IMG/VR virus record: IMGVR_UViG_3300035208_001807
Coordinates: 1-64,000 of that record
Reading direction: 5' to 3' (one strand)
From: a virus
Lineage: Duplodnaviria > Caudoviricetes
DNA: 64,000 nt
The notes beneath the pieces were generated by a model, which was not told where the DNA came from, searched no databases, and worked only from the letters and a program-made list of their open reading frames with translations. The position numbers and the translations under genes were made by a program. Positions 1 to 49,380 of the stretch are shown here, one piece after another; position 1 is the stretch's first letter, and the number at the start of each line of letters is the position of its first letter.

Positions 1-85
1 TCTTAAAGCTCCGGAGGGATTCATTGCAGAAGAAGGTCCGAGGGGTAACGTTTGCGCGCTACCCCTCAGCCTATCTTTTTAGCTC

Positions 86-5872: not shown

Positions 5873-7120
5873 TTAGATATTGCGCGTCGGCTCGGTCATC
5901 GTGGTGATTGAATGATCGTGCTTGAAGTCGTAGCTGTTTGCGATTGCGATGTTACGAGCAACAACCACTGACTTGCCCTGTGATAACAGGCCTAGGCCAT
6001 AGCGCTCACGAATCTTCAGCTGACGAATATCCTTTGCAGGATCGTCGAACTGTTCTGTAGAGATGTCATCCTTCTGGACCAGGATGCCGGCTTCGCTGTC
6101 GTCGATTACATAAACGTCAGTTAGCGGCGTCTTGGCTAGGCCACTGGTCGTAACCAGGGTGTTGCCAGCGGATGTTCCGTCAGACTGCTTTACCACAGCG
6201 GCGCCCTTAGGTACGAACCGCACGTATGGTGAAACCAATACGCGTAGAGGTACCGGGAACACTCCCTGAGGAATGGTCGTCTGAGTTGTTGACAGGTTCG
6301 GGGCGATTGTCTTGTACTTCAGGTTCTGTGCTGCGTCCCAGCCCGTCTGTCCTACTGAACCGGAGAACATCCCGCCCCAGTAGTTTTGGTTCTGCATCCA
6401 TGCCATTTCACGGAGCATGGGGTTTTTAGCCACCATGAGCCATGCCAGGGGATGCATAAGGATTGTCTTCGGGGTGAATCCAGAGTTGATCAGGTACGCG
6501 ATCATATCGAAGATATCATCGAGATGAAGTGAACCGTTCACAGCTCCATCGATGCCACGGCCCGTAGTTGCACCTACAACACCGGTGGTAGGTTCGACGT
6601 TGTCGAATACCTTGTAACCGAATGTTGAGAATAGGGTCGAGCACTTTGATTCCTTGTGATGTGCAAGAGCACGGCCCGCTGCACGAAGGTGAAGACCGAT
6701 GACATCCCATTGACTGTCTTCGATCATTTCTTCGGTCACACGAACCAGCACGCCGGACTTCGTGACGTTAATAGCCACGACGTTCCCGGAACCGATTTCT
6801 AGCTGCTTCTCTGGATATGCACTGCCTTCAGCAACGTCTTCTGCAGTTAGAGCTCCGACAGCTGGGAACTCGATCGAACGCCCTTGATTAATGCGCACGG
6901 TCTGGAAGAAGTTGTTTGAGATGGTCAGGACAGGCTCCACGGCTTCTTTTACTACTGAAGAGATTACCTTCGGTAGGAAGATAGAAGCATCGCTGGAGAC
7001 TAGAAGATCCTTGATCTTCATTCTCTTGCCATCCTCGACGACGCCGTTATTCAAGAATGCGGCTTCCGCCATCTTCTTGAATCCGTCTTTTACCACGTCT
7101 TGGATCTTTCCGTCACTCAT
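5873..7120 (-). CDS. Major capsid protein (HK97 fold)
   Basis: 415 aa; VAEGSAYPE, KSGVLVRVTEEMIEDSQWDV, TILMHPLAW, IRERYG. Confidence 0.9.
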   Translation of the reverse strand: MSDGKIQDVVKDGFKKMAEAAFLNNGVVEDGKRMKIKDLLVSSDASIFLPKVISSVVKEAVEPVLTISNNFFQTVRINQGRSIEFPAVGALTAEDVAEGSAYPEKQLEIGSGNVVAINVTKSGVLVRVTEEMIEDSQWDVIGLHLRAAGRALAHHKESKCSTLFSTFGYKVFDNVEPTTGVVGATTGRGIDGAVNGSLHLDDIFDMIAYLINSGFTPKTILMHPLAWLMVAKNPMLREMAWMQNQNYWGGMFSGSVGQTGWDAAQNLKYKTIAPNLSTTQTTIPQGVFPVPLRVLVSPYVRFVPKGAAVVKQSDGTSAGNTLVTTSGLAKTPLTDVYVIDDSEAGILVQKDDISTEQFDDPAKDIRQLKIRERYGLGLLSQGKSVVVARNIAIANSYDFKHDHSITTMTEPTRNI

Positions 7121-23774: not shown

Positions 23775-24956
23775 TTACCCTCTCCTGCGTCCAAGCATTC
23801 CAGTCTGATTCAGTTCCGATCCACCGACTTGGCGTTCTCCCGGAGTTCCAGAGATAATACCCATGTCAGCTGGCAGTTCGATCTTGACCTGCTCGGTCTG
23901 ACGCTGAGTGATCTTCTGGCTCATTTCAGAGGCTTCTTTCTTTGCCTCTTCAACAAGATCCTTGATGCGTTGTTCGGGCAGACGCATACCAGCTAGCATG
24001 GTATTGATCGTTAGCTTCTTTACCTCTGTGGTATAGATGCCTCGGTTCAGTCCGCCAGAGCCGATATCTTGTTTGATTGAGTTGAATAGGTTCTCTTCGA
24101 ATGCGTGGGCGTAATCAAAGCCGATAGGCTTCTCAATAACACCAGCCGCACGAATGGCTGTCTTGTGATCGAATCCCGAGGCCAGTAAGCCATTAAGGAT
24201 CTTCTCTACAGCCTTGGTTAGGTATGCGGCGGGATCTGCAGGCTCAGCGCCACTTTCGAGATCGAGCTCCGAGGATCCTAGGATTAAGAAGCCCGGAGTC
24301 ATCAGGCACTTCTTATAGTCCTCGGCATCGAAGGCTGTTTCGGTTGCCATAGAAGACAACTGATTGAACCTATCGAAGAGATCAACGATCTCGCGGTTAG
24401 CTGTTCTCCAGAAGTCTGTTGAGGTCTTCTGGTTCAGGCGTTCTGTAACGCGCTGGTTATCAACTACTACAATAGACTGAATGCCCTTGTAGTTCGCGAT
24501 CTTCTCTAGGCCACGGAGGCAGTTTACCTTCTCGTCAGTGCCTTCGTTCGTTCTTGGAAGGGTAACGATCATTCCAACAGGGATGCCAAGCGCTGAAGCG
24601 ATTTCAGCAACCAAGACACCGCCAAGAGTACCGGTTCCTCCACCAAGTCCAGCAACCACGAAGATGAATTCCTTGTTGTTGAACTTGCGCTGGATCTTCT
24701 TGAGAAGCGTGTTTGCGTATTCATTAATTGCTTGTGCTCCTACATCTGGGTTCTTGCCGGCGCCACCTGCGCCTAGAACTAACTGAATCCTAGAGTTTTC
24801 ATCCTTAGGGATGAAGTTCAAGGTCTCATAGTCCCTATCGGTTAGATTGACAGCCATGGTGTCATATCCGACCTCGGCAAACACATCAGCGATATGGTTG
24901 CCGCAGCCCCCAACTCCGATGATGCCGATATCTAGTGTTCTCTTTACGTCTGACAT
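23775..24956 (-). CDS. Tubulin/FtsZ-family GTPase (TubZ/PhuZ-like)
   Basis: GVGGCG, GAGKNP, GLGGGTGT signature; start taken at MSDVKR with GGAGG RBS. Confidence 0.88.
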   Translation of the reverse strand: MSDVKRTLDIGIIGVGGCGNHIADVFAEVGYDTMAVNLTDRDYETLNFIPKDENSRIQLVLGAGGAGKNPDVGAQAINEYANTLLKKIQRKFNNKEFIFVVAGLGGGTGTLGGVLVAEIASALGIPVGMIVTLPRTNEGTDEKVNCLRGLEKIANYKGIQSIVVVDNQRVTERLNQKTSTDFWRTANREIVDLFDRFNQLSSMATETAFDAEDYKKCLMTPGFLILGSSELDLESGAEPADPAAYLTKAVEKILNGLLASGFDHKTAIRAAGVIEKPIGFDYAHAFEENLFNSIKQDIGSGGLNRGIYTTEVKKLTINTMLAGMRLPEQRIKDLVEEAKKEASEMSQKITQRQTEQVKIELPADMGIISGTPGERQVGGSELNQTGMLGRRRG

Positions 24957-25018
24957 GGAAGCTACCTCCAGCTCTTTCTCTATAGTTTTGTTTACCGACT
25001 TTGCAGTCGGAACGGCGA

Positions 25019-25522
25019 TTAATCTACTAAGGTCCGCAAGGGAGGAGGACCTGGCTTTATTGGTTTCCTCATGTATGGATCGACCTGCGATTCCTGCGAC
25101 TCCACTTGGGGCAGAACTCCCGATGGGAGAGGAGTCACTCCTACTTCCCACATCGGTGTTGGCAAGTACCCCGATACTGCTATCTCCTGGTTGTCCGGGT
25201 AATTGAACCCCGTGTATCCCGAGCGGCCTGTCGCTCCGGAGTACCCCGAGAATCCCGACCACCCCGGTCCTTCCGGACTCTCTACTACTATCATCACTGG
25301 ATGAGCCTGCGACTCCGATGCTTGCTGGGCTGGAGGACGAGGCAGGTCCCCTATGAAGCGGTGCGACGCTCTCTCCATTGCATCGTGTACTCCCTGTATC
25401 TTGCGGTCTATCTCCTGAGCTCTGGTTGTCAGAACTCTTTGCCTCAGTTTCTCTACTGGTTCCAGTAGTCGGCTTGCCAAACTCCAGAGTGAGCTCTTTG
25501 ATGCTGATGTTTTCGAGCTCAT
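25019..25522 (-). CDS. Hypothetical protein with SG repeats and C-terminal LRTLVD
   Basis: GAGG RBS; SGFSGYSGATGRSGYTG. Confidence 0.55.
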   Translation of the reverse strand: MSSKTSASKSSLWSLASRLLEPVEKLRQRVLTTRAQEIDRKIQGVHDAMERASHRFIGDLPRPPAQQASESQAHPVMIVVESPEGPGWSGFSGYSGATGRSGYTGFNYPDNQEIAVSGYLPTPMWEVGVTPLPSGVLPQVESQESQVDPYMRKPIKPGPPPLRTLVD

Positions 25523-25779
25523 TATTCATCATCCTCTCGGCTGCGCCCATTACAGTCTCTTTGGCTAATTGCCGATAGTGATTCTGTGCAGGAAGATGAT
25601 GCGGGCAGGCTTTGTAAGTACATCCGGGGTGTGGACACTTGGGTAAATGCCATAAAGTCCCTCCAGGACCTTTAAGTTGACTAGTTCCTAAGATGTAGCA
25701 GTAAATCACTGATCGTCCTCTCCAGAAACGATCTACGTATTGTACATAACCTTTGGAGTATCATTATCATCTTTAGGCA

Positions 25780-26178
25780 TTAGTTTGTCAATGCCCCGGC
25801 CTTAATAATGCACCAGATCATAAGATCCATGACATTATAGGCCCAGCGCTCTTCGATGGTCTCTTGTTGATTCTCACTGAGTGTATCTTTGAGCATCTCT
25901 GTGAATGGGTCTTGTATAATATGTGTGACCTCATGAAAAGCCACAGAGGCAATCCTGGCTTCATTTTCTAGAGTATCGGGCATGCTCTCGATGTCATCTG
26001 GGACCCTAAAGCATATCTCATACCGTCCCTTTTGTGGTAGGCACGCCACCCAGGCCTCATCACCATTCTCGGATGCATAGTTGACAAACTTGACAGTTAT
26101 TCTGCCTTGGGGATTCATTACCCAACGAGCCAGTTCAATAGCCTTGGTAACGATATCTTCAAATCTCTTGGATGTCAT
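25780..26178 (-). CDS. Putative HExxH metallopeptidase
   Basis: VAFHEVTH...EE. Confidence 0.5.
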   Translation of the reverse strand: MTSKRFEDIVTKAIELARWVMNPQGRITVKFVNYASENGDEAWVACLPQKGRYEICFRVPDDIESMPDTLENEARIASVAFHEVTHIIQDPFTEMLKDTLSENQQETIEERWAYNVMDLMIWCIIKAGALTN

Positions 26179-26186
26179 AGTAGCTC

Positions 26187-26672
26187 CTAGTGTAGGACTA
26201 CAACCTTACTCGAAGACTCTCTTGGGAAATTAGCTGTTTCAAGCACTTCAACAAGTTCTGTCGGGAATTCGGCCATCCCGAACTGGGGGCCTGCATACTC
26301 AGTATGCCAGATCTCAGTGTCAGGAGGAAGCTTCTCTAGTATCTTGATCAACTTAGCAGCTGTAAGGCGCTCACGATCCGCAATTCCTCTATAGAGAACA
26401 TCATCTTCTTTAGCTGCCCAGGACGGAGACAATGTATCGGTCTGACAGAACCTCTGACAGACCCCATAATATTCGGGTGGCTTACCATGGCGCTCATTAT
26501 ATTCATCCACGATCATCTTAACCATATCGTCACTCAGAACCGTTCCCTTATGATCGACATGTATACTACATCTAGTACAAGTACTTATGAGGCCGCCACT
26601 AAGATCGGGCCGGTCAATAACGAAATCATGACCTTCTCCCGATGCGCATTCCTGAAACTTAACCTCTTCCAT
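26187..26672 (-). CDS. Hypothetical protein
   Basis: ORF track; GAGGA RBS. Confidence 0.45.
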   Translation of the reverse strand: MEEVKFQECASGEGHDFVIDRPDLSGGLISTCTRCSIHVDHKGTVLSDDMVKMIVDEYNERHGKPPEYYGVCQRFCQTDTLSPSWAAKEDDVLYRGIADRERLTAAKLIKILEKLPPDTEIWHTEYAGPQFGMAEFPTELVEVLETANFPRESSSKVVVLH

Positions 26673-26871
26673 TGGGTAGTCCTCTCACTATTGGTCCCTG
26701 AGTGCCATCGTACTTAGCCTTCATCTTGGTGAGAAGAGCATCGGCGAGGTTGCGCGCCTCTTGCACAGTCATAGCTGTCTTGATACGCTCAAGATCAAGC
26801 TTGACTCCATCATAGAAGTGGCGCTGCATTACGAGTACTTTAGTTGAAGGCTTGAATTCATCACCGATCAT
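26659..26871 (-). CDS. Hypothetical protein
   Basis: Coupled ORF. Confidence 0.4.
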   Translation of the reverse strand: MIGDEFKPSTKVLVMQRHFYDGVKLDLERIKTAMTVQEARNLADALLTKMKAKYDGTQGPIVRGLPNGRG

Positions 26872-27106
26872 TTCTCTTACCTCTCTCAGCTGCGTCGATC
26901 TGTTCGATCTTCGATTCCAACTCTTTAAGCTTACCGCCTGAGATTAACTGATACATCACGTCTTGAGCTTGTTGGTGGTAGCAGTTATACTCACAGTTCT
27001 CGTCACAATGATCATTGGCAATGGACTCTATGAATAGTACCATTATGGCTAGGGCGTGGGTCTGCATGGGAGGACTCCTCTGCGGAGCACAGGTGGGTAC
27101 ACCCAT
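26861..27106 (-). CDS. Hypothetical protein
   Basis: Coupled ORF; start may be internal. Confidence 0.35.
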   Translation of the reverse strand: MGVPTCAPQRSPPMQTHALAIMVLFIESIANDHCDENCEYNCYHQQAQDVMYQLISGGKLKELESKIEQIDAAERGKRNDR

Positions 27107-27118
27107 ATTATAACGTCT

Positions 27119-27787
27119 CTAGTCGACGATCTCTCTAAGAGTAGATCTCCTTACTTTAGGGGGCTCTTCTACCTTCTTTTCCATGGCAGGTGCGTATATC
27201 TTCATCAAGGCCTCATAGGCCTGGGGGTTCAGGATCATAGTGTTGGGAGTACCGTATTGATCGATCACGTTTCTAGCCGCCTCCATCATTGTCATGAGGT
27301 CTATTTGATTCCCGCCACCAATATTAGAGTGCCAACCGCTCACCTCTCTACACACAAAGTCAGCAGTATAGGTTTGCTCGGTACTATCATAAGAAATGTC
27401 TGTAACAACAACGCCCAATAGGCTCATACTAGTGGGGCCGCCCGCATCATTACGACCATGGAGATGGATGTCCCAGTGATCGTTCACGCCAGGTACTCCA
27501 TGCCACTGATAGCGGGTTGCAAAAACCAAACTCCCAGTAATGCGGGGTTGACTCCTCGTGAACATTGCAGGATCCATAGATCCCATTACAGAGATCGGCA
27601 TTCTCTCTCTGGACATAGAGTAACTTACAGCCCTAGGCATAATTGTCTCAAGGGCGGCAGTCTCTCCCTCGCGGTGGACCTCGATACCCAGATCAGGTAG
27701 GCGCGCATAGGCCCGAGTGAGTCTATTAGACTCTTCTGCGGGCTGCGGCCTTACAGGCAGATTATTAGATGAGGTTATAGCGGCCAC
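27119..27787 (-). CDS. Tail-tube paralog with capsid-like segment and LREIVD tail
   Basis: VSYSMSRERMPISVMGSMDP..ITGSLVF and FVCREVSGW align with 86..736. Confidence 0.7.
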   Translation of the reverse strand: MAAITSSNNLPVRPQPAEESNRLTRAYARLPDLGIEVHREGETAALETIMPRAVSYSMSRERMPISVMGSMDPAMFTRSQPRITGSLVFATRYQWHGVPGVNDHWDIHLHGRNDAGGPTSMSLLGVVVTDISYDSTEQTYTADFVCREVSGWHSNIGGGNQIDLMTMMEAARNVIDQYGTPNTMILNPQAYEALMKIYAPAMEKKVEEPPKVRRSTLREIVD

Positions 27788-27789
27788 TA

Positions 27790-28032
27790 TTAATCCTCGT
27801 CAGGATAGCGACCATAGTAGTCGCCGCCCAGATACATATCACTATCATGGTGCCACCCGCAACCCAGTATATCCCTAAGGATACGGATAGCCCGGCGCAA
27901 CTCACCATAGGTCATATCAACAGCCTGTCCCTCAGTCTTCTTATCAAAAGCAGCCTTGTAGAATGTCAACTCCCTATAGCAGTTTGTAACCACTTGGTCG
28001 CTGGTCAGATGCTTATCATCTACTCTACTCAT
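27790..28032 (-). CDS. Hypothetical protein
   Basis: Coupled ORF. Confidence 0.4.
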   Translation of the reverse strand: MSRVDDKHLTSDQVVTNCYRELTFYKAAFDKKTEGQAVDMTYGELRRAIRILRDILGCGWHHDSDMYLGGDYYGRYPDED

Positions 28033-28526
28033 TTCTTATCCTCCACGTTGACTGGCTTCTTTAACAACCCCTTTTTAACCATTTCCTTATAGAAGCATTG
28101 CATAGGCCACCCTACACAGTCGGCGAACTTCTCCTCCATTTCCATTTCTTCCAGGAGGTTGTTCCTCTTCCTCGAGCAGTAACGGTTCCTTGCGTACCAG
28201 GACGCAGCATGTAGGAACTCATGCAGTACAGTGATAACTCCATGCTTTCCCCGTAGGCTCTCAAGGTTGAAGAAGATGATCCCTGTTCTCTTGGTAACTA
28301 ACTCCCAGGGTGCGTTCTTCACACCCTTCTTCCGGATCCACTTAGCTGGGCGCGGTATATGGCAACCCATCTCATTGGCAGGATGATCTTGCTTATGGGC
28401 AAGCTTCTTCTGTTCCTGCCTCCGCGCTGCAGTCAACATATCCTTATGCTTCCTATAGACCCGGACCTCTACAAAGCAGTCCGAATGGTCAAATGGGAAC
28501 CCATAGTCATAAACAGGTTTCGCCAT
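28029..28526 (-). CDS. Putative HExxH metallopeptidase
   Basis: VLHEFLH...EE. Confidence 0.5.
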   Translation of the reverse strand: MAKPVYDYGFPFDHSDCFVEVRVYRKHKDMLTAARRQEQKKLAHKQDHPANEMGCHIPRPAKWIRKKGVKNAPWELVTKRTGIIFFNLESLRGKHGVITVLHEFLHAASWYARNRYCSRKRNNLLEEMEMEEKFADCVGWPMQCFYKEMVKKGLLKKPVNVEDKK

Positions 28527-28747
28527 TACCGCCCCTCCGAAGGGACCTCAGGGTCCTGACCAGTACAGTCCGGGTTAGGACAAGGCAGCTTCTCTCTTGC
28601 CTCCCAGGTTGCCCCACAGCAAGGACAGTACCCCTTCACATAAACACGCGCTTTCTTCGCTTCGCGCTTTTCCCGCCACTCCTGTATCCTCACTCCTACT
28701 AGAAAGCCGCCTATACAGACCGCACTTATCACTAGAGCATGTAGCAT
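28526..28747 (-). CDS. Small membrane-anchored Zn-ribbon protein
   Basis: N-terminal TM, CPCC..CPNPDC. Confidence 0.45.
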   Translation of the reverse strand: MLHALVISAVCIGGFLVGVRIQEWREKREAKKARVYVKGYCPCCGATWEAREKLPCPNPDCTGQDPEVPSEGR

Positions 28748-28787
28748 TTAGAGTCTCCTTTGCAGTACTTCGTACAAAAACGTTTAC

Positions 28788-28982
28788 TTACACATTCTTA
28801 AAGTCTTCTGCAACTATACCTAGGAATTGCTCTTCGGCGGCGTCCCCACCTGAGTCGGTATTTAACTCCAGATGCAGGTCAGCGTAGAGGCTACCCTCGT
28901 CTTTTGAGGAGTAGGCTAATACGCGGACTTCCATGTCGTCGCTTAGATCACTGATGTATTCACGTAGTTCTTTGATCTTCAT
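28788..28982 (-). CDS. Hypothetical protein
   Basis: MKIKELREYISDLSDDMEV-type small phage protein. Confidence 0.45.
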   Translation of the reverse strand: MKIKELREYISDLSDDMEVRVLAYSSKDEGSLYADLHLELNTDSGGDAAEEQFLGIVAEDFKNV

Positions 28983-29656
28983 TGTTCTTTCTCCCAGATG
29001 AAACCTAGTATAAGCTTCTGCATGAGCCTAAAGAACCAATTAGGCCTTCTCTTAAACCCTCTGAACTCTATACTCCCATCCTTATCCTTAAAGAGGACTA
29101 GGTTATGGGGACCGCCCTCGTCCGAGGAGACGACTACGCCATTAGAGGGTTGGGTGTCGCTCATAAAATAGACGGGCGGACCTTCTCGGTGTGTAAAGCC
29201 CTCCGTCGTAAGGGGCCCCGCGGTGTCGGAAGGAACTGCTTCAACTTCCTGTCCTGGGACAGAAGTAAAGGGGTAAGTCTGAACAGCTGTATCGCGCTGA
29301 GCAGGATACTGGGGAGTGTAGGGATATTGAATATTAATACTATCCCCTACAATCTCTGCTGTCATAGAACTGCGAGGACCTGTCGTAACACCGGGAATGA
29401 TGACTCCTTGCTCGGCCATGAGTTCTCTTACTCTACGATTAGCTATTGCTTCCATCTGAGCACGCATTTCGGGAGTGTCGCGCTGGCCGACGAAGTGCTC
29501 AAGTTCACGACGTAAGGTAGAAGCAATGTTCATCTCTGCGTAGGAGTTGGGGTCTAAGTCTGAGTCACGGAGATGGGGACGTACAAGGGATCTAAGATCC
29601 TGGGGTTGGAATGTGGCGCCTGTGCGCTCGGGTAGATTATTGGCCATCGATCGCAT
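28979..29656 (-). CDS. Protein with tail-sheath C-terminal-like domain
   Basis: LEHFVGQRDTPEMRAQME resembles sheath ADPFIGEPNSDAMRNALQ. Confidence 0.5.
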   Translation of the reverse strand: MRSMANNLPERTGATFQPQDLRSLVRPHLRDSDLDPNSYAEMNIASTLRRELEHFVGQRDTPEMRAQMEAIANRRVRELMAEQGVIIPGVTTGPRSSMTAEIVGDSINIQYPYTPQYPAQRDTAVQTYPFTSVPGQEVEAVPSDTAGPLTTEGFTHREGPPVYFMSDTQPSNGVVVSSDEGGPHNLVLFKDKDGSIEFRGFKRRPNWFFRLMQKLILGFIWEKEQ

Positions 29657-46800: not shown

Positions 46801-47598
46801 TTGGAATACCGTAATACAACTCCATATAATGTCGAAGACCCGAAGCAGTTCATCGATATGCTTCGGACTCAGCTTGAGAGTTATCTCACTGAGTATAAGT
46901 TGGAGTCTTGTGTTCTTGGTGTTAGTGGCGGGCTTGATTCTGCCCTTGTGGCTGCAATAGCAGCTCCTATCTGTAAGAAGTTGCATGTTCAGTTCATCTG
47001 CGCCTCTCTTCCTTCTGCTACTAACAAGCCTGATGAAGTTGATCGGGCGAGTCGCACCCTTGCCTTTGGTAGTTCTGCCATCATCCGTCTCATTGACGAA
47101 GACCTTGTTTCGATTCCCTACATCTCTGCTCATCCTGATAAGCAGGAGAAGATCCGCCTTGGTAATGTCAAGGCTCGTGTCCGCATGATCCTTCTTTATG
47201 ATCTAGCTGGTCATTATAAGGGGATTGTTCTTGGTACAGATAACTGGACCGAGAAGCAGCTTGGCTTCTGGACACTTCATGGCGATGTGGGTGACTTCAA
47301 TCTTATTCAGAATGTCACTAAGTCTGATGTCTATATCCTAGCTCAATGGCTTGCTGACCATGAGTTAACTGATGGTCTTAAGCAGGTCATGCTAGATACC
47401 ATCGCAGCTACTCCGACAGATGGACTAGGAATCACTAGTTCAGATCTTGAACAGATCGGTGCCTCTTCCTATCAGGAAGTGGATCGAATTCTATTGGGTT
47501 TCTTTCAGGGGCAGTGTGCAGACCCTGGTCACCCAGTGATTCAACGCCATGAGCGCACGCATTTCAAGCGGGCGAATCCTAAGAATGTGGGAGACTAA
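46801..47598 (+). CDS. nadE: NH3-dependent NAD synthetase
   Basis: GVSGGLDS, GNVKARVRM, GTDN, HGD, PTDGL. Confidence 0.92.
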   Translation: MEYRNTTPYNVEDPKQFIDMLRTQLESYLTEYKLESCVLGVSGGLDSALVAAIAAPICKKLHVQFICASLPSATNKPDEVDRASRTLAFGSSAIIRLIDEDLVSIPYISAHPDKQEKIRLGNVKARVRMILLYDLAGHYKGIVLGTDNWTEKQLGFWTLHGDVGDFNLIQNVTKSDVYILAQWLADHELTDGLKQVMLDTIAATPTDGLGITSSDLEQIGASSYQEVDRILLGFFQGQCADPGHPVIQRHERTHFKRANPKNVGD

Positions 47599-47599
47599 C

Positions 47600-48220
47600 A
47601 TGATCGTCAGTATGGATGTCGATGCTCAGCGTGGTTTTACTCCACTTTGTCCTAATGAGCTGCCCGTGGCAGATGGGGACAAGATTGTGGATGCCCTGAA
47701 CGCTCAGGCAAAGCTTGCCCAGGCACGAGTTGGTTCCAAGGATGCACATCCTCAGGATGCTCGTTGGACCAGAGAGACCCCCTTTACTCCTGTGAAGGAT
47801 TCGGCCAATGTTGATCTCTGCTGGCCTCGCCATTGCGTAGTGGGAACTGAGGGCAATAAGCTTCTGCCTGGCCTTCCCAATGTCATTGACTATGATTTCT
47901 TCGTCTTCAAGGGCTGCGAGCCTGACCTCCATCCCTATGGGGCTTGTTATCATGACCTGAAGGATACTCTCTCTACGGGTCTGATCGAGTACCTTAAAGG
48001 TATCGGGACCAAGACTGTCATTGTTGGTGGTCTAGCTACCGATTACTGCGTGAAGACAACTGCTCTTCAGCTTAAGCGAGCCAAGTTCGATGTTATCTTG
48101 AACTTGGAGGCTTGCCGCGGTGTTGCCCCTGAATCTTCTGATAAGGCTATCGAAGAGATGATAACAGCCGGGATCAAGGTTGTTGCCAAGACTAGTGATA
48201 TCAAGGAACTGCTCAAATGA
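47600..48220 (+). CDS. pncA: Nicotinamidase
   Basis: VDAQRGF, KDAH, WPRHC, GLATDYCV. Confidence 0.9.
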   Translation: MIVSMDVDAQRGFTPLCPNELPVADGDKIVDALNAQAKLAQARVGSKDAHPQDARWTRETPFTPVKDSANVDLCWPRHCVVGTEGNKLLPGLPNVIDYDFFVFKGCEPDLHPYGACYHDLKDTLSTGLIEYLKGIGTKTVIVGGLATDYCVKTTALQLKRAKFDVILNLEACRGVAPESSDKAIEEMITAGIKVVAKTSDIKELLK

Positions 48221-49380
48221 TCAAGTCTCTTCTCGATAACGACCTTTATAAACTCACCATGATGCAGGCTGTGTGGGCGAAGTTCCACAAGGCTCAGGCC
48301 GTGTATGAGTTTAAGTGCCGGACCAAGGGTGTGGTCTGGACTAAGGAGCAGTTCGAGAAGCTTGGCGAGAACTTTGCCTGCTTGCAGGGCCTTAAGGCTA
48401 CAACGGCAGAGCTGGACTACTTGTATGAAACCGGCCTTTTCAAGGACGAGTTCATCGTTTTCTTGCATGGCTTCGAGCTGGGTATCGAAAGCCTCGGGCT
48501 TGGATGGGATGAGAAGACAGGCGAGCTGGACTTGTCTATCTGTGGTTCTTGGCTGGACACCATCCTTCTTGAGGTTCCAGTCCTTGCCATCATCAACCAG
48601 ACCTATTTCCAGACTAAGAATAACACCGAGGGCATTTCTCGCATGAATGCCAAGATCGAAATGCTTGAGAAGTTGAGTGATCCTACCTTCAAGTTTGTGG
48701 ACTTTGGTACCCGGCGCCGCTACTCTCGTGAGTGGCAGGAGCGTATCGTCAAGGCCTTGAAACAATTCGCTCCCACCAACTTTGTTGGTACCTCGAATGT
48801 CAAGCTTGCCATGGATCACAATCTTCCTTGTGTGGGGACCATGGCTCATGAATGGATCATGGCCGGGCAAGGGATGTGCTGTGCACCCCGTCTAGCTCAG
48901 CGTGTCATGCTGGACAAGTGGGCTGAGGTTTATAAGGGCAAGCTGGGCATCGCCCTTAGCGATACTCTTGGAACCATCAACTTCCTTAAGGATTTTGATG
49001 GCCGGCTGGCCAGGATGTATGATGGAATGCGCCAGGATAGTGGGGACCCTTATAAGTGGCTTGAATGGGTCCTTTTCCACTATAATACTCTTGGCATTGA
49101 TGCCAAGACCAAGCGAGCTGTCTTCAGTGACAATCTGTCAATTGGTACCGCGCATAATATCCATCAGGCTGTTGCTGGACGTATCCAGGACTCCTATGGA
49201 ATCGGGACCAACCTCACTAATGACTGCGGGCCTGAACCGCTCAATATCGTCATCAAAATGACGGAGTGTAACAATCACCCAGTGGTTAAGTTTAGTGATG
49301 TTCCTACTAAGGCCATGGGGGATGACTTTCAGCAGCAGTTGATGCGCAAAGAGTACGAATATCAAACTACGCTTGTCTAA
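48217..49380 (+). CDS. pncB: Nicotinate phosphoribosyltransferase
   Basis: LLDNDLYKLTM, DFGTRRR, GTMAHEW, RQDSGDP, GIGTNL. Confidence 0.92.
   Translation: MIKSLLDNDLYKLTMMQAVWAKFHKAQAVYEFKCRTKGVVWTKEQFEKLGENFACLQGLKATTAELDYLYETGLFKDEFIVFLHGFELGIESLGLGWDEKTGELDLSICGSWLDTILLEVPVLAIINQTYFQTKNNTEGISRMNAKIEMLEKLSDPTFKFVDFGTRRRYSREWQERIVKALKQFAPTNFVGTSNVKLAMDHNLPCVGTMAHEWIMAGQGMCCAPRLAQRVMLDKWAEVYKGKLGIALSDTLGTINFLKDFDGRLARMYDGMRQDSGDPYKWLEWVLFHYNTLGIDAKTKRAVFSDNLSIGTAHNIHQAVAGRIQDSYGIGTNLTNDCGPEPLNIVIKMTECNNHPVVKFSDVPTKAMGDDFQQQLMRKEYEYQTTLV

Follow-up and report, generated by a model that had tools for sequence, protein, structure and literature searches.

An orphan tail-tube paralog in an accessory gene island of a large tailed phage

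Why should a tailed phage encode a protein resembling its tail tube at a distance from its tail genes? This question is raised by a gene on the minus strand at positions 27119-27787 of the window, which is the first 64 kb (64,000 nucleotides) of a 149,407-bp viral contig with an estimated completeness of 68%. The initial annotation described the product as a chimera of tail-tube and capsid sequence, encoded outside the structural operon and possibly acting as a decoy. We therefore considered the relationship of the protein to the tail tube, the nature of its C-terminal part, and its genomic setting, and then weighed the roles that it may play.

The gene and its tail-tube fold

The open reading frame (ORF) codes for 222 amino acids, with a GTG start at 27787 and a TAG stop at 27121-27119. 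The ribosome-binding site, GAGGA, is located six nucleotides 5' of the GTG, which itself lies two bases past the stop of the upstream gene, and the two genes abut. On a second contig of the same phage an identical gene was called independently with the same limits (222 aa), and all known copies are identical. Both the codon usage (z 0.17) and the GC content match the rest of the genome, and therefore the gene is not a recent foreign arrival. With its native codons, intact frame and good ribosome-binding site, it looks like a maintained gene rather than fresh debris.

The canonical tail tube gene, here called tube1, codes for 216 aa at 86-736 on the minus strand. It immediately follows the gene at 756-2189, identified as the sheath gene by its match to PHROG 16991 ("tail sheath", E 6e-74). 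The relatives of tube1 number more than 3,500 and have no Pfam domain; the named ones are the "tail tube protein" of phage KLEB27-3 and gp140, which is the tail tube of Bacillus phage 0305phi8-36. The two tube-like stretches that had been pointed out in the 222-residue protein both fall inside one BLASTP alignment to tube1, which covers residues 20-167 with 23% identity and an E value of 7e-13. The protein P0124 was matched at E 4e-16. Family HMMs built here from the tube1 set and from the set of the adjacent paralog, tube2, scored the protein at 51.6 and 40.9 bits, respectively, and tube1 itself scored 127 bits against the tube2 HMM. PHROG 9206 matched tube1 at E 1e-48 and the 222-residue protein at E 6.3e-4 over residues 52-90, a real but weak profile match. 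The label of this PHROG, "major head protein", was rejected as an annotation error inherited from database records. The conserved hairpin motif of the family, SYSxxRExxP...G...P, is present at residues 55-73.

The structure of the protein was predicted with AlphaFold2 from an alignment of 80 sequences, in which the C-terminal part was represented by a single sequence. The mean pLDDT of the model was 77, and it reached about 90 in the beta core. Foldseek matched the model to solved tail tubes, Hcp and tube-like baseplate chains with E values of 1e-7 to 1e-4 (best 1.3e-7), and VIA gave Z scores of up to 11.3, with an rmsd of 3.6 Å over 132 residues, in alignments covering residues 19-157. The matches of the model in BFVD included gp141 of 0305phi8-36 (A7KUR5) and T4-type gp3. 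BLASTP, the HMMs, AlphaFold2, Foldseek and VIA together delimit a tail-tube fold domain at 27317-27731 on the minus strand (residues about 19-157). The predicted structure, a tail-tube beta-sandwich, and the matches to the family HMMs thus upheld the proposed likeness to the tube, and the protein is a real, very distant paralog of tube1 with the tube fold. Complex prediction for tube1 and the paralog gave a score of 0.10 against a mark of 0.32, which speaks neither for nor against binding.

In all the relatives examined (WH1, L006, L007, G001 and G003-G005) the sheath gene is followed by tube1 and then by tube2. L007, G001 and G003-G005 carry exactly the adjacent tube1 and tube2, and a third tube copy was not found in them. 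On the present contig, tube1 is followed at 1-85 (minus strand) by a terminator-like hairpin and then by a GGAG ribosome-binding site, an arrangement also seen ahead of tube2 in L007. On the 149-kb contig no distal tail gene of that relative was found; tube2, the chaperones, the tape measure and the baseplate are missing from it. Since the contig ends just after a hairpin and a GGAG that resemble the tube2 leader of L007, the canonical tube2 was most likely cut off. Judged by this conserved leader, the canonical tube2 would lie in the missing part of the genome, which amounts to about 70 kb, and therefore the gene at 27119-27787 is most likely a third copy.

Two further observations were made among the relatives. 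On an ERR10755945 contig, beside P0019, tube1 is followed by a 602-aa gene with intein-splicing and LAGLIDADG domains, which looks like an intein inserted in a tube2 gene. The metagenomic proteins P0123 (1264 aa), P0127 (3088 aa) and P0125 (556 aa) contain two to four tube-like stretches each, with a tube domain at both ends of P0125, suggesting that they are fusion proteins of several tube domains.

Divergence of the paralog and its C-terminal extension

A word-indexed search of 5.8 billion proteins matched the paralog only to itself. An exhaustive search of 1.84 billion representatives returned no closer relative, and the next matches, with E values of at least 4e-6, belonged without exception either to the tube family or to multi-domain proteins that contain tube-like repeats. 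No orthologue was found in the phage collection or in the viral contigs. In the maximum-likelihood tree the terminal branch of the paralog measured 6.9-7.2 substitutions per site, about 14 times the median of 0.5. The unconstrained tree grouped it with tube1, and a tree forcing it together with tube2 was not rejected (AU p 0.75).

The divergence includes both losses and gains. There are 42 columns conserved to at least 80% in 79 tube1 and tube2 proteins; the paralog keeps 20 of them, deletes 7 and replaces the residue in 15, and the substitutions G32D, D34G and R81P fall at invariant columns. The paralog also lacks an insertion subdomain of roughly 50 residues, made of helix and strand, which corresponds to residues 76-125 of tube1 and was modelled there with a pLDDT of about 90. 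It has gained about 14 residues at the N-terminus, which form an arm, and about 65 residues at the C-terminus.

The C-terminal extension (27122-27316 on the minus strand, residues about 158-222) is absent from tube1 and tube2. It was predicted to contain helices at residues 164-178, 181-186 and 188-202, with block-mean pLDDT values of 57-79, followed by a charged tail, and no usable match for it came from Pfam, the PDB sequence search or the ESM Atlas. The initial annotation had assigned a capsid-like segment to this part of the protein. The alignment could be reproduced, pairing residues 163-196 of the paralog with the stretch 202-232 of the major capsid protein (MCP; gene at 5873-7120), yet the similarity was at chance level. 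BLASTP of the segment against the MCP gave an E value of 7.5, and Smith-Waterman alignment against 2,000 shuffles gave p = 0.08. With hhalign against an alignment of 12 members of the MCP family, the probability was 1.5% (P 0.034). When the MCP HMM was run against 68-residue windows of 208 proteins of the genome, the segment ranked fourth, behind three other proteins, which corresponds to a per-protein p of about 0.02, as expected when many proteins are compared.

Searches with capsid families and structures gave a similar picture. Pfam had no match at E ≤ 10 for either the whole protein or residues 155-222, and genome scans with the capsid/encapsulin models PF04454 and PF05065 left the ORF untouched. 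The PDB sequence search with residues 155-222 returned the HK97-fold encapsulin 2e0z at an E value of 1.1, aligned on a homologous motif, I(L/I)NPxxYxxLxKIY, a match that is curious but not significant. In the AlphaFold2 model the capsid-like region consists of three helices, predicted with modest confidence from a single sequence. No capsid was among the fold matches listed by Foldseek, BFVD and VIA, whose alignments span only residues 19-157. The proposed fusion of tube and capsid sequence hence has no statistical support on its capsid side. Nor did the terminal LREIVD behave as a recurring tag: one other REIVD occurs in the six frames of the window, inside a tubulin-like gene (24381-24395).

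An accessory island on the strand of the structural genes

The gene was said to lie outside the structural operon. In terms of distance this is true: some 26 kb separate it from tube1, and the terminase gene follows about 11.5 kb downstream. All these genes are on the same strand. A search for terminator-like sites on the minus strand gave none before 24.3 kb. Since the gene lies on the same strand, upstream of the packaging and structural genes, with no terminator found between, late co-transcription with them is possible. In a promoter scan, sigma70-like sites were no commoner than in shuffled sequences. In jumbo phages the structural genes are frequently dispersed, and the position alone therefore does not exclude a role in the virion.

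Nine small genes make up an island at 26187-29656 on the minus strand, and the present gene is the sixth of them. Upstream, near 30 kb, the island is preceded by a divergent intergenic region, and downstream of the island follow the tubulin-like gene and the genes for resolvase, terminase, portal, capsid, sheath and tube1. None of the nine genes received a PHROG, Pfam or PADLOC assignment above noise, the PADLOC result being uninformative for anti-defence genes. In the relative L008/G001, whose tubulin is 62% identical, the genes flanking the island are conserved, and the syntenic slot holds about a dozen unrelated small ORFs, among which no tube-like sequence was found.

The stop codons also set the island apart. 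Its nine genes end in TAA (4), TAG (2) and TGA (3), whereas all 26 consecutive core genes from tube1 to 26178, with virion, packaging and tubulin functions, end in TAA (Fisher p 3.9e-4 for the two groups). TAA likewise ends all 15 genes of the ribonucleotide reductase/thymidylate kinase block (positions 100709-112823 of the genome), and the genes for DNA polymerase, ligase and a UvsX-like recombinase in neighbouring blocks. Small-gene regions elsewhere in the genome have mixed stop codons. The contrast between the mixed stops of the island and the uniform TAA of the core places the paralog in the flexible rather than the core class of genes. The paralogy, the fold, the orphan status, the losses and the accessory setting are all shown by the analyses above.

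An amber-suppressor-type tRNA(CUA) is encoded at 121181-121254 of the genome, and this tRNA could be the reason why TAG is avoided in core genes. General recoding of TAG was rejected, since TAG ends 50 of 209 ORFs and the read-through extensions are mostly short. The TAG of the paralog is followed in the same frame by an ORF at 26861-27121 (minus strand) with 85 sense codons up to a TGA, and suppression by the tRNA would yield a 308-aa fusion. The downstream gene also has an AGGAG of its own ahead of its second ATG (27067), and the shared frame may thus be a coincidence (chance about 0.15).

Other genes in and around the island were also inspected. The TubZ/PhuZ-like tubulin gene at 23775-25709 (minus strand; Pfam Tubulin, E 3.6e-20) is given by gene callers as 393 aa (23775-24956), and the 644-aa open frame upstream of it overlaps with a 167-aa gene that was called separately in a different frame (25019-25522). 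The first gene of the island (28979-29656, minus strand) codes for 225 aa, of which only the last 31 residues are kept in L008. Its similarity to the sheath was not significant (E 0.19), and it was rejected as a sheath-like protein; a set of structural mimics in the island is therefore unsupported. Two small proteins of unknown family with HExxH motifs are encoded on the minus strand in and beside the island, at 28029-28526 (HEFLH) and 25780-26178 (HEVTH), and show no detectable kinship to each other (E 4.1). Further away, three adjacent plus-strand genes at 46801-49380 form an NAD salvage set, with Pfam matches to NAD synthase (NadE, 2e-35), an isochorismatase/nicotinamidase-like protein (1e-13) and nicotinate phosphoribosyltransferase (PncB, 2e-65). 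These genes would fit a pressure from NAD-depleting defences on the phage, as weak and circumstantial evidence.

Possible roles and comparison with known systems

A second tube-derived orphan was found by a profile search of WH1, the Bacillus jumbo phage vB_BceM_WH1. In addition to the adjacent tube genes, WH1 has a tube-derived ORF of 173 aa, gp277, annotated as a hypothetical protein (LC597490.1 215763-216284; locus L020:4264-4785). It is located more than 100 kb from the tube genes, among the genes for thioredoxin, SSB and RecA. Edson, also a Bacillus jumbo phage, carries an orthologue in the matching place (PV796108.1 219367-219864), which is full-length and 59% identical, indicating that a tube orphan of this kind can be maintained. 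The tube-like part of both ORFs comprises roughly the first 50 residues.

We propose, as an even call, that the protein at 27119-27787 is an accessory, non-core protein that is still tube-like in its core and hairpin. The gene would be a lineage-specific, fast-evolving third copy of the tube gene, carried in a replaceable island of small accessory genes. Its product would keep the beta-sandwich core and the hairpin of the tube while losing the insertion subdomain and about half of the conserved residues, and it probably does not polymerise into the tail tube. Such a protein may act as a soluble look-alike that occupies a surface which normally recognises the tube protein. Candidate partners would be a host tube sensor of the DSR2 or Avs16 type, or the growing tube end, either of its own phage or of a co-infecting one.

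Defences that sense the tube have been described. DSR2 is reported to be triggered by the tail tube protein (PMC10981675), and to be blocked by DSAD1, an SPbeta phage protein (PMC10981675, PMC11087589). Among the published work cited here, DSAD1 is the only example of a phage countering a tube-sensing defence. In published models, Avs16 grips the conserved tube hairpin, and several Avs families sit on the A-domain of the MCP (PMC13581612). The trigger of DSR2 and the hairpin models of Avs16 make a decoy or jamming function of the paralog conceivable. A bolder version of this reading, which we consider unlikely, has three linked parts: jumbo phages of the 0305phi8-36 lineage would repeatedly move stripped, non-polymerising tube copies into accessory islands; these copies would be mimics that jam DSR2- or Avs16-like sensors or cap rival tubes; and the present protein would be an instance of such a tube-derived protein, serving counter-defence or exclusion by a mechanism not described before. 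If a phage did encode a non-assembling look-alike of the tube, it would be a new means of countering defence, or else a weapon directed at other phages. Apart from any decoy role, the case shows that huge phages copy the folds of their core virion proteins, pare them down and reuse them as accessory genes that evolve fast. Should the protein turn out to be a minor component of the tail or a remnant, the finding would be ordinary.

The view that the protein is not an ordinary tail part, as the initial annotation held, agrees with its orphan status, the replaceable island, the losses, and the candidate neck and terminator genes already in place; the capsid chimera of that annotation found no statistical support. 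Nevertheless, the paralog could be a minor component of the virion with a tube fold, such as an initiator, a terminator or cap, or an adaptor ring, encoded in this lineage at a distance from the tail genes. It is common for paralogs with the tube fold to function as initiators, terminators or hub domains, and the fold matches obtained here include neck, cap and baseplate chains together with T4-type gp3. In 0305phi8-36, mass spectrometry identified the tube paralog gp141 as a protein of the virion, and the present gene is on the strand of the structural genes and may derive from tube2, an origin that the tree comparison did not reject. However, essential tail parts are conserved among relatives, whereas this protein had no orthologue in the searches. 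The slots between capsid and sheath already hold conserved genes for virion proteins (190 aa and 291 aa), and candidate neck and terminator genes stand at their usual places in the structural module. Since, in addition, the gene falls in the mixed-stop accessory class and its product has lost family-invariant residues, we regard a virion role as possible but doubtful.

It is somewhat less probable still that the gene is a decaying duplicate or a recombination leftover without function, its frame being open by luck. The extreme branch length, the lost invariant residues, the singleton status and a C-terminal tail that matches nothing would all be expected of such a remnant. On the other hand, a frame of 222 codons has stayed open despite divergence to 23% identity, the core of the fold and the hairpin are kept with a pLDDT of about 90, and the gene has a good ribosome-binding site, abuts its upstream neighbour and uses native codons. 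Comparable tube-derived orphans, moreover, are conserved between WH1 and Edson. By far the least credible of the explanations is a double decoy, in which a chimera of tube and capsid would address both tube- and capsid-sensing defences. The best local matches of the tail, to the MCP family and to encapsulin 2e0z, do fall on the same conserved A-domain motif, and the MCP A-domain and the tube hairpin are the sites on which Avs families and Avs16, respectively, have been modelled (PMC13581612). Against this, every capsid statistic (E 7.5; p 0.08; 1.5%; rank 4 of 208) is at chance level, no capsid Pfam model matches, and the segment is modelled, at low confidence, as helical where the capsid has a strand. 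The fold matches listed, with alignments limited to residues 19-157, also contain no capsid.

The beta-sandwich is common to the paralog and the solved tail tube and Hcp folds, including those of HFTV1 (9fkb_AM), phiCD508, phage 812, PVC/AFP and SPR, with Z scores of 9-11 and rmsd values of 3.4-4.3 Å over 120-135 residues at 4-13% identity. The fold by itself does not reveal whether a protein polymerises into a tube or serves as an initiator, a cap or a soluble ring. A closer comparison is offered by 0305phi8-36, in which the sheath gene (gp139) is followed by those for the tube (gp140), the "tail tube paralog" (gp141), gp142, two chaperones and gp145, a long structural protein of the virion; gp139-gp142 and gp145 were detected in virions by mass spectrometry. 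The present protein shares with gp140 and gp141 the sequence family, the fold and the SYSxxRExxP hairpin motif. While gp140 and gp141 adjoin the sheath gene and are kept across relatives, the present gene is an isolated orphan, and its product differs from both in lacking the insertion subdomain and many invariant residues and in having a unique helical C-terminal tail.

The setting of the gene resembles that of gp277 of WH1. Both are tube-derived genes in jumbo phages of the same structural lineage, and both stand at a great distance from the tail genes, with small non-structural genes as neighbours. The two proteins have only the hairpin motif in common (E 0.001), and gp277 has no similar C-terminal tail, which points to independent origins. 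With regard to function, the SPR tail tube, which triggers DSR2, has a fold of the type found in the paralog. If the decoy reading is right, the paralog would belong to the same functional class as DSAD1. DSAD1 is, by its published description, a phage-encoded inhibitor of DSR2, and an inhibitor derived from the tube itself would differ from it in mechanism.
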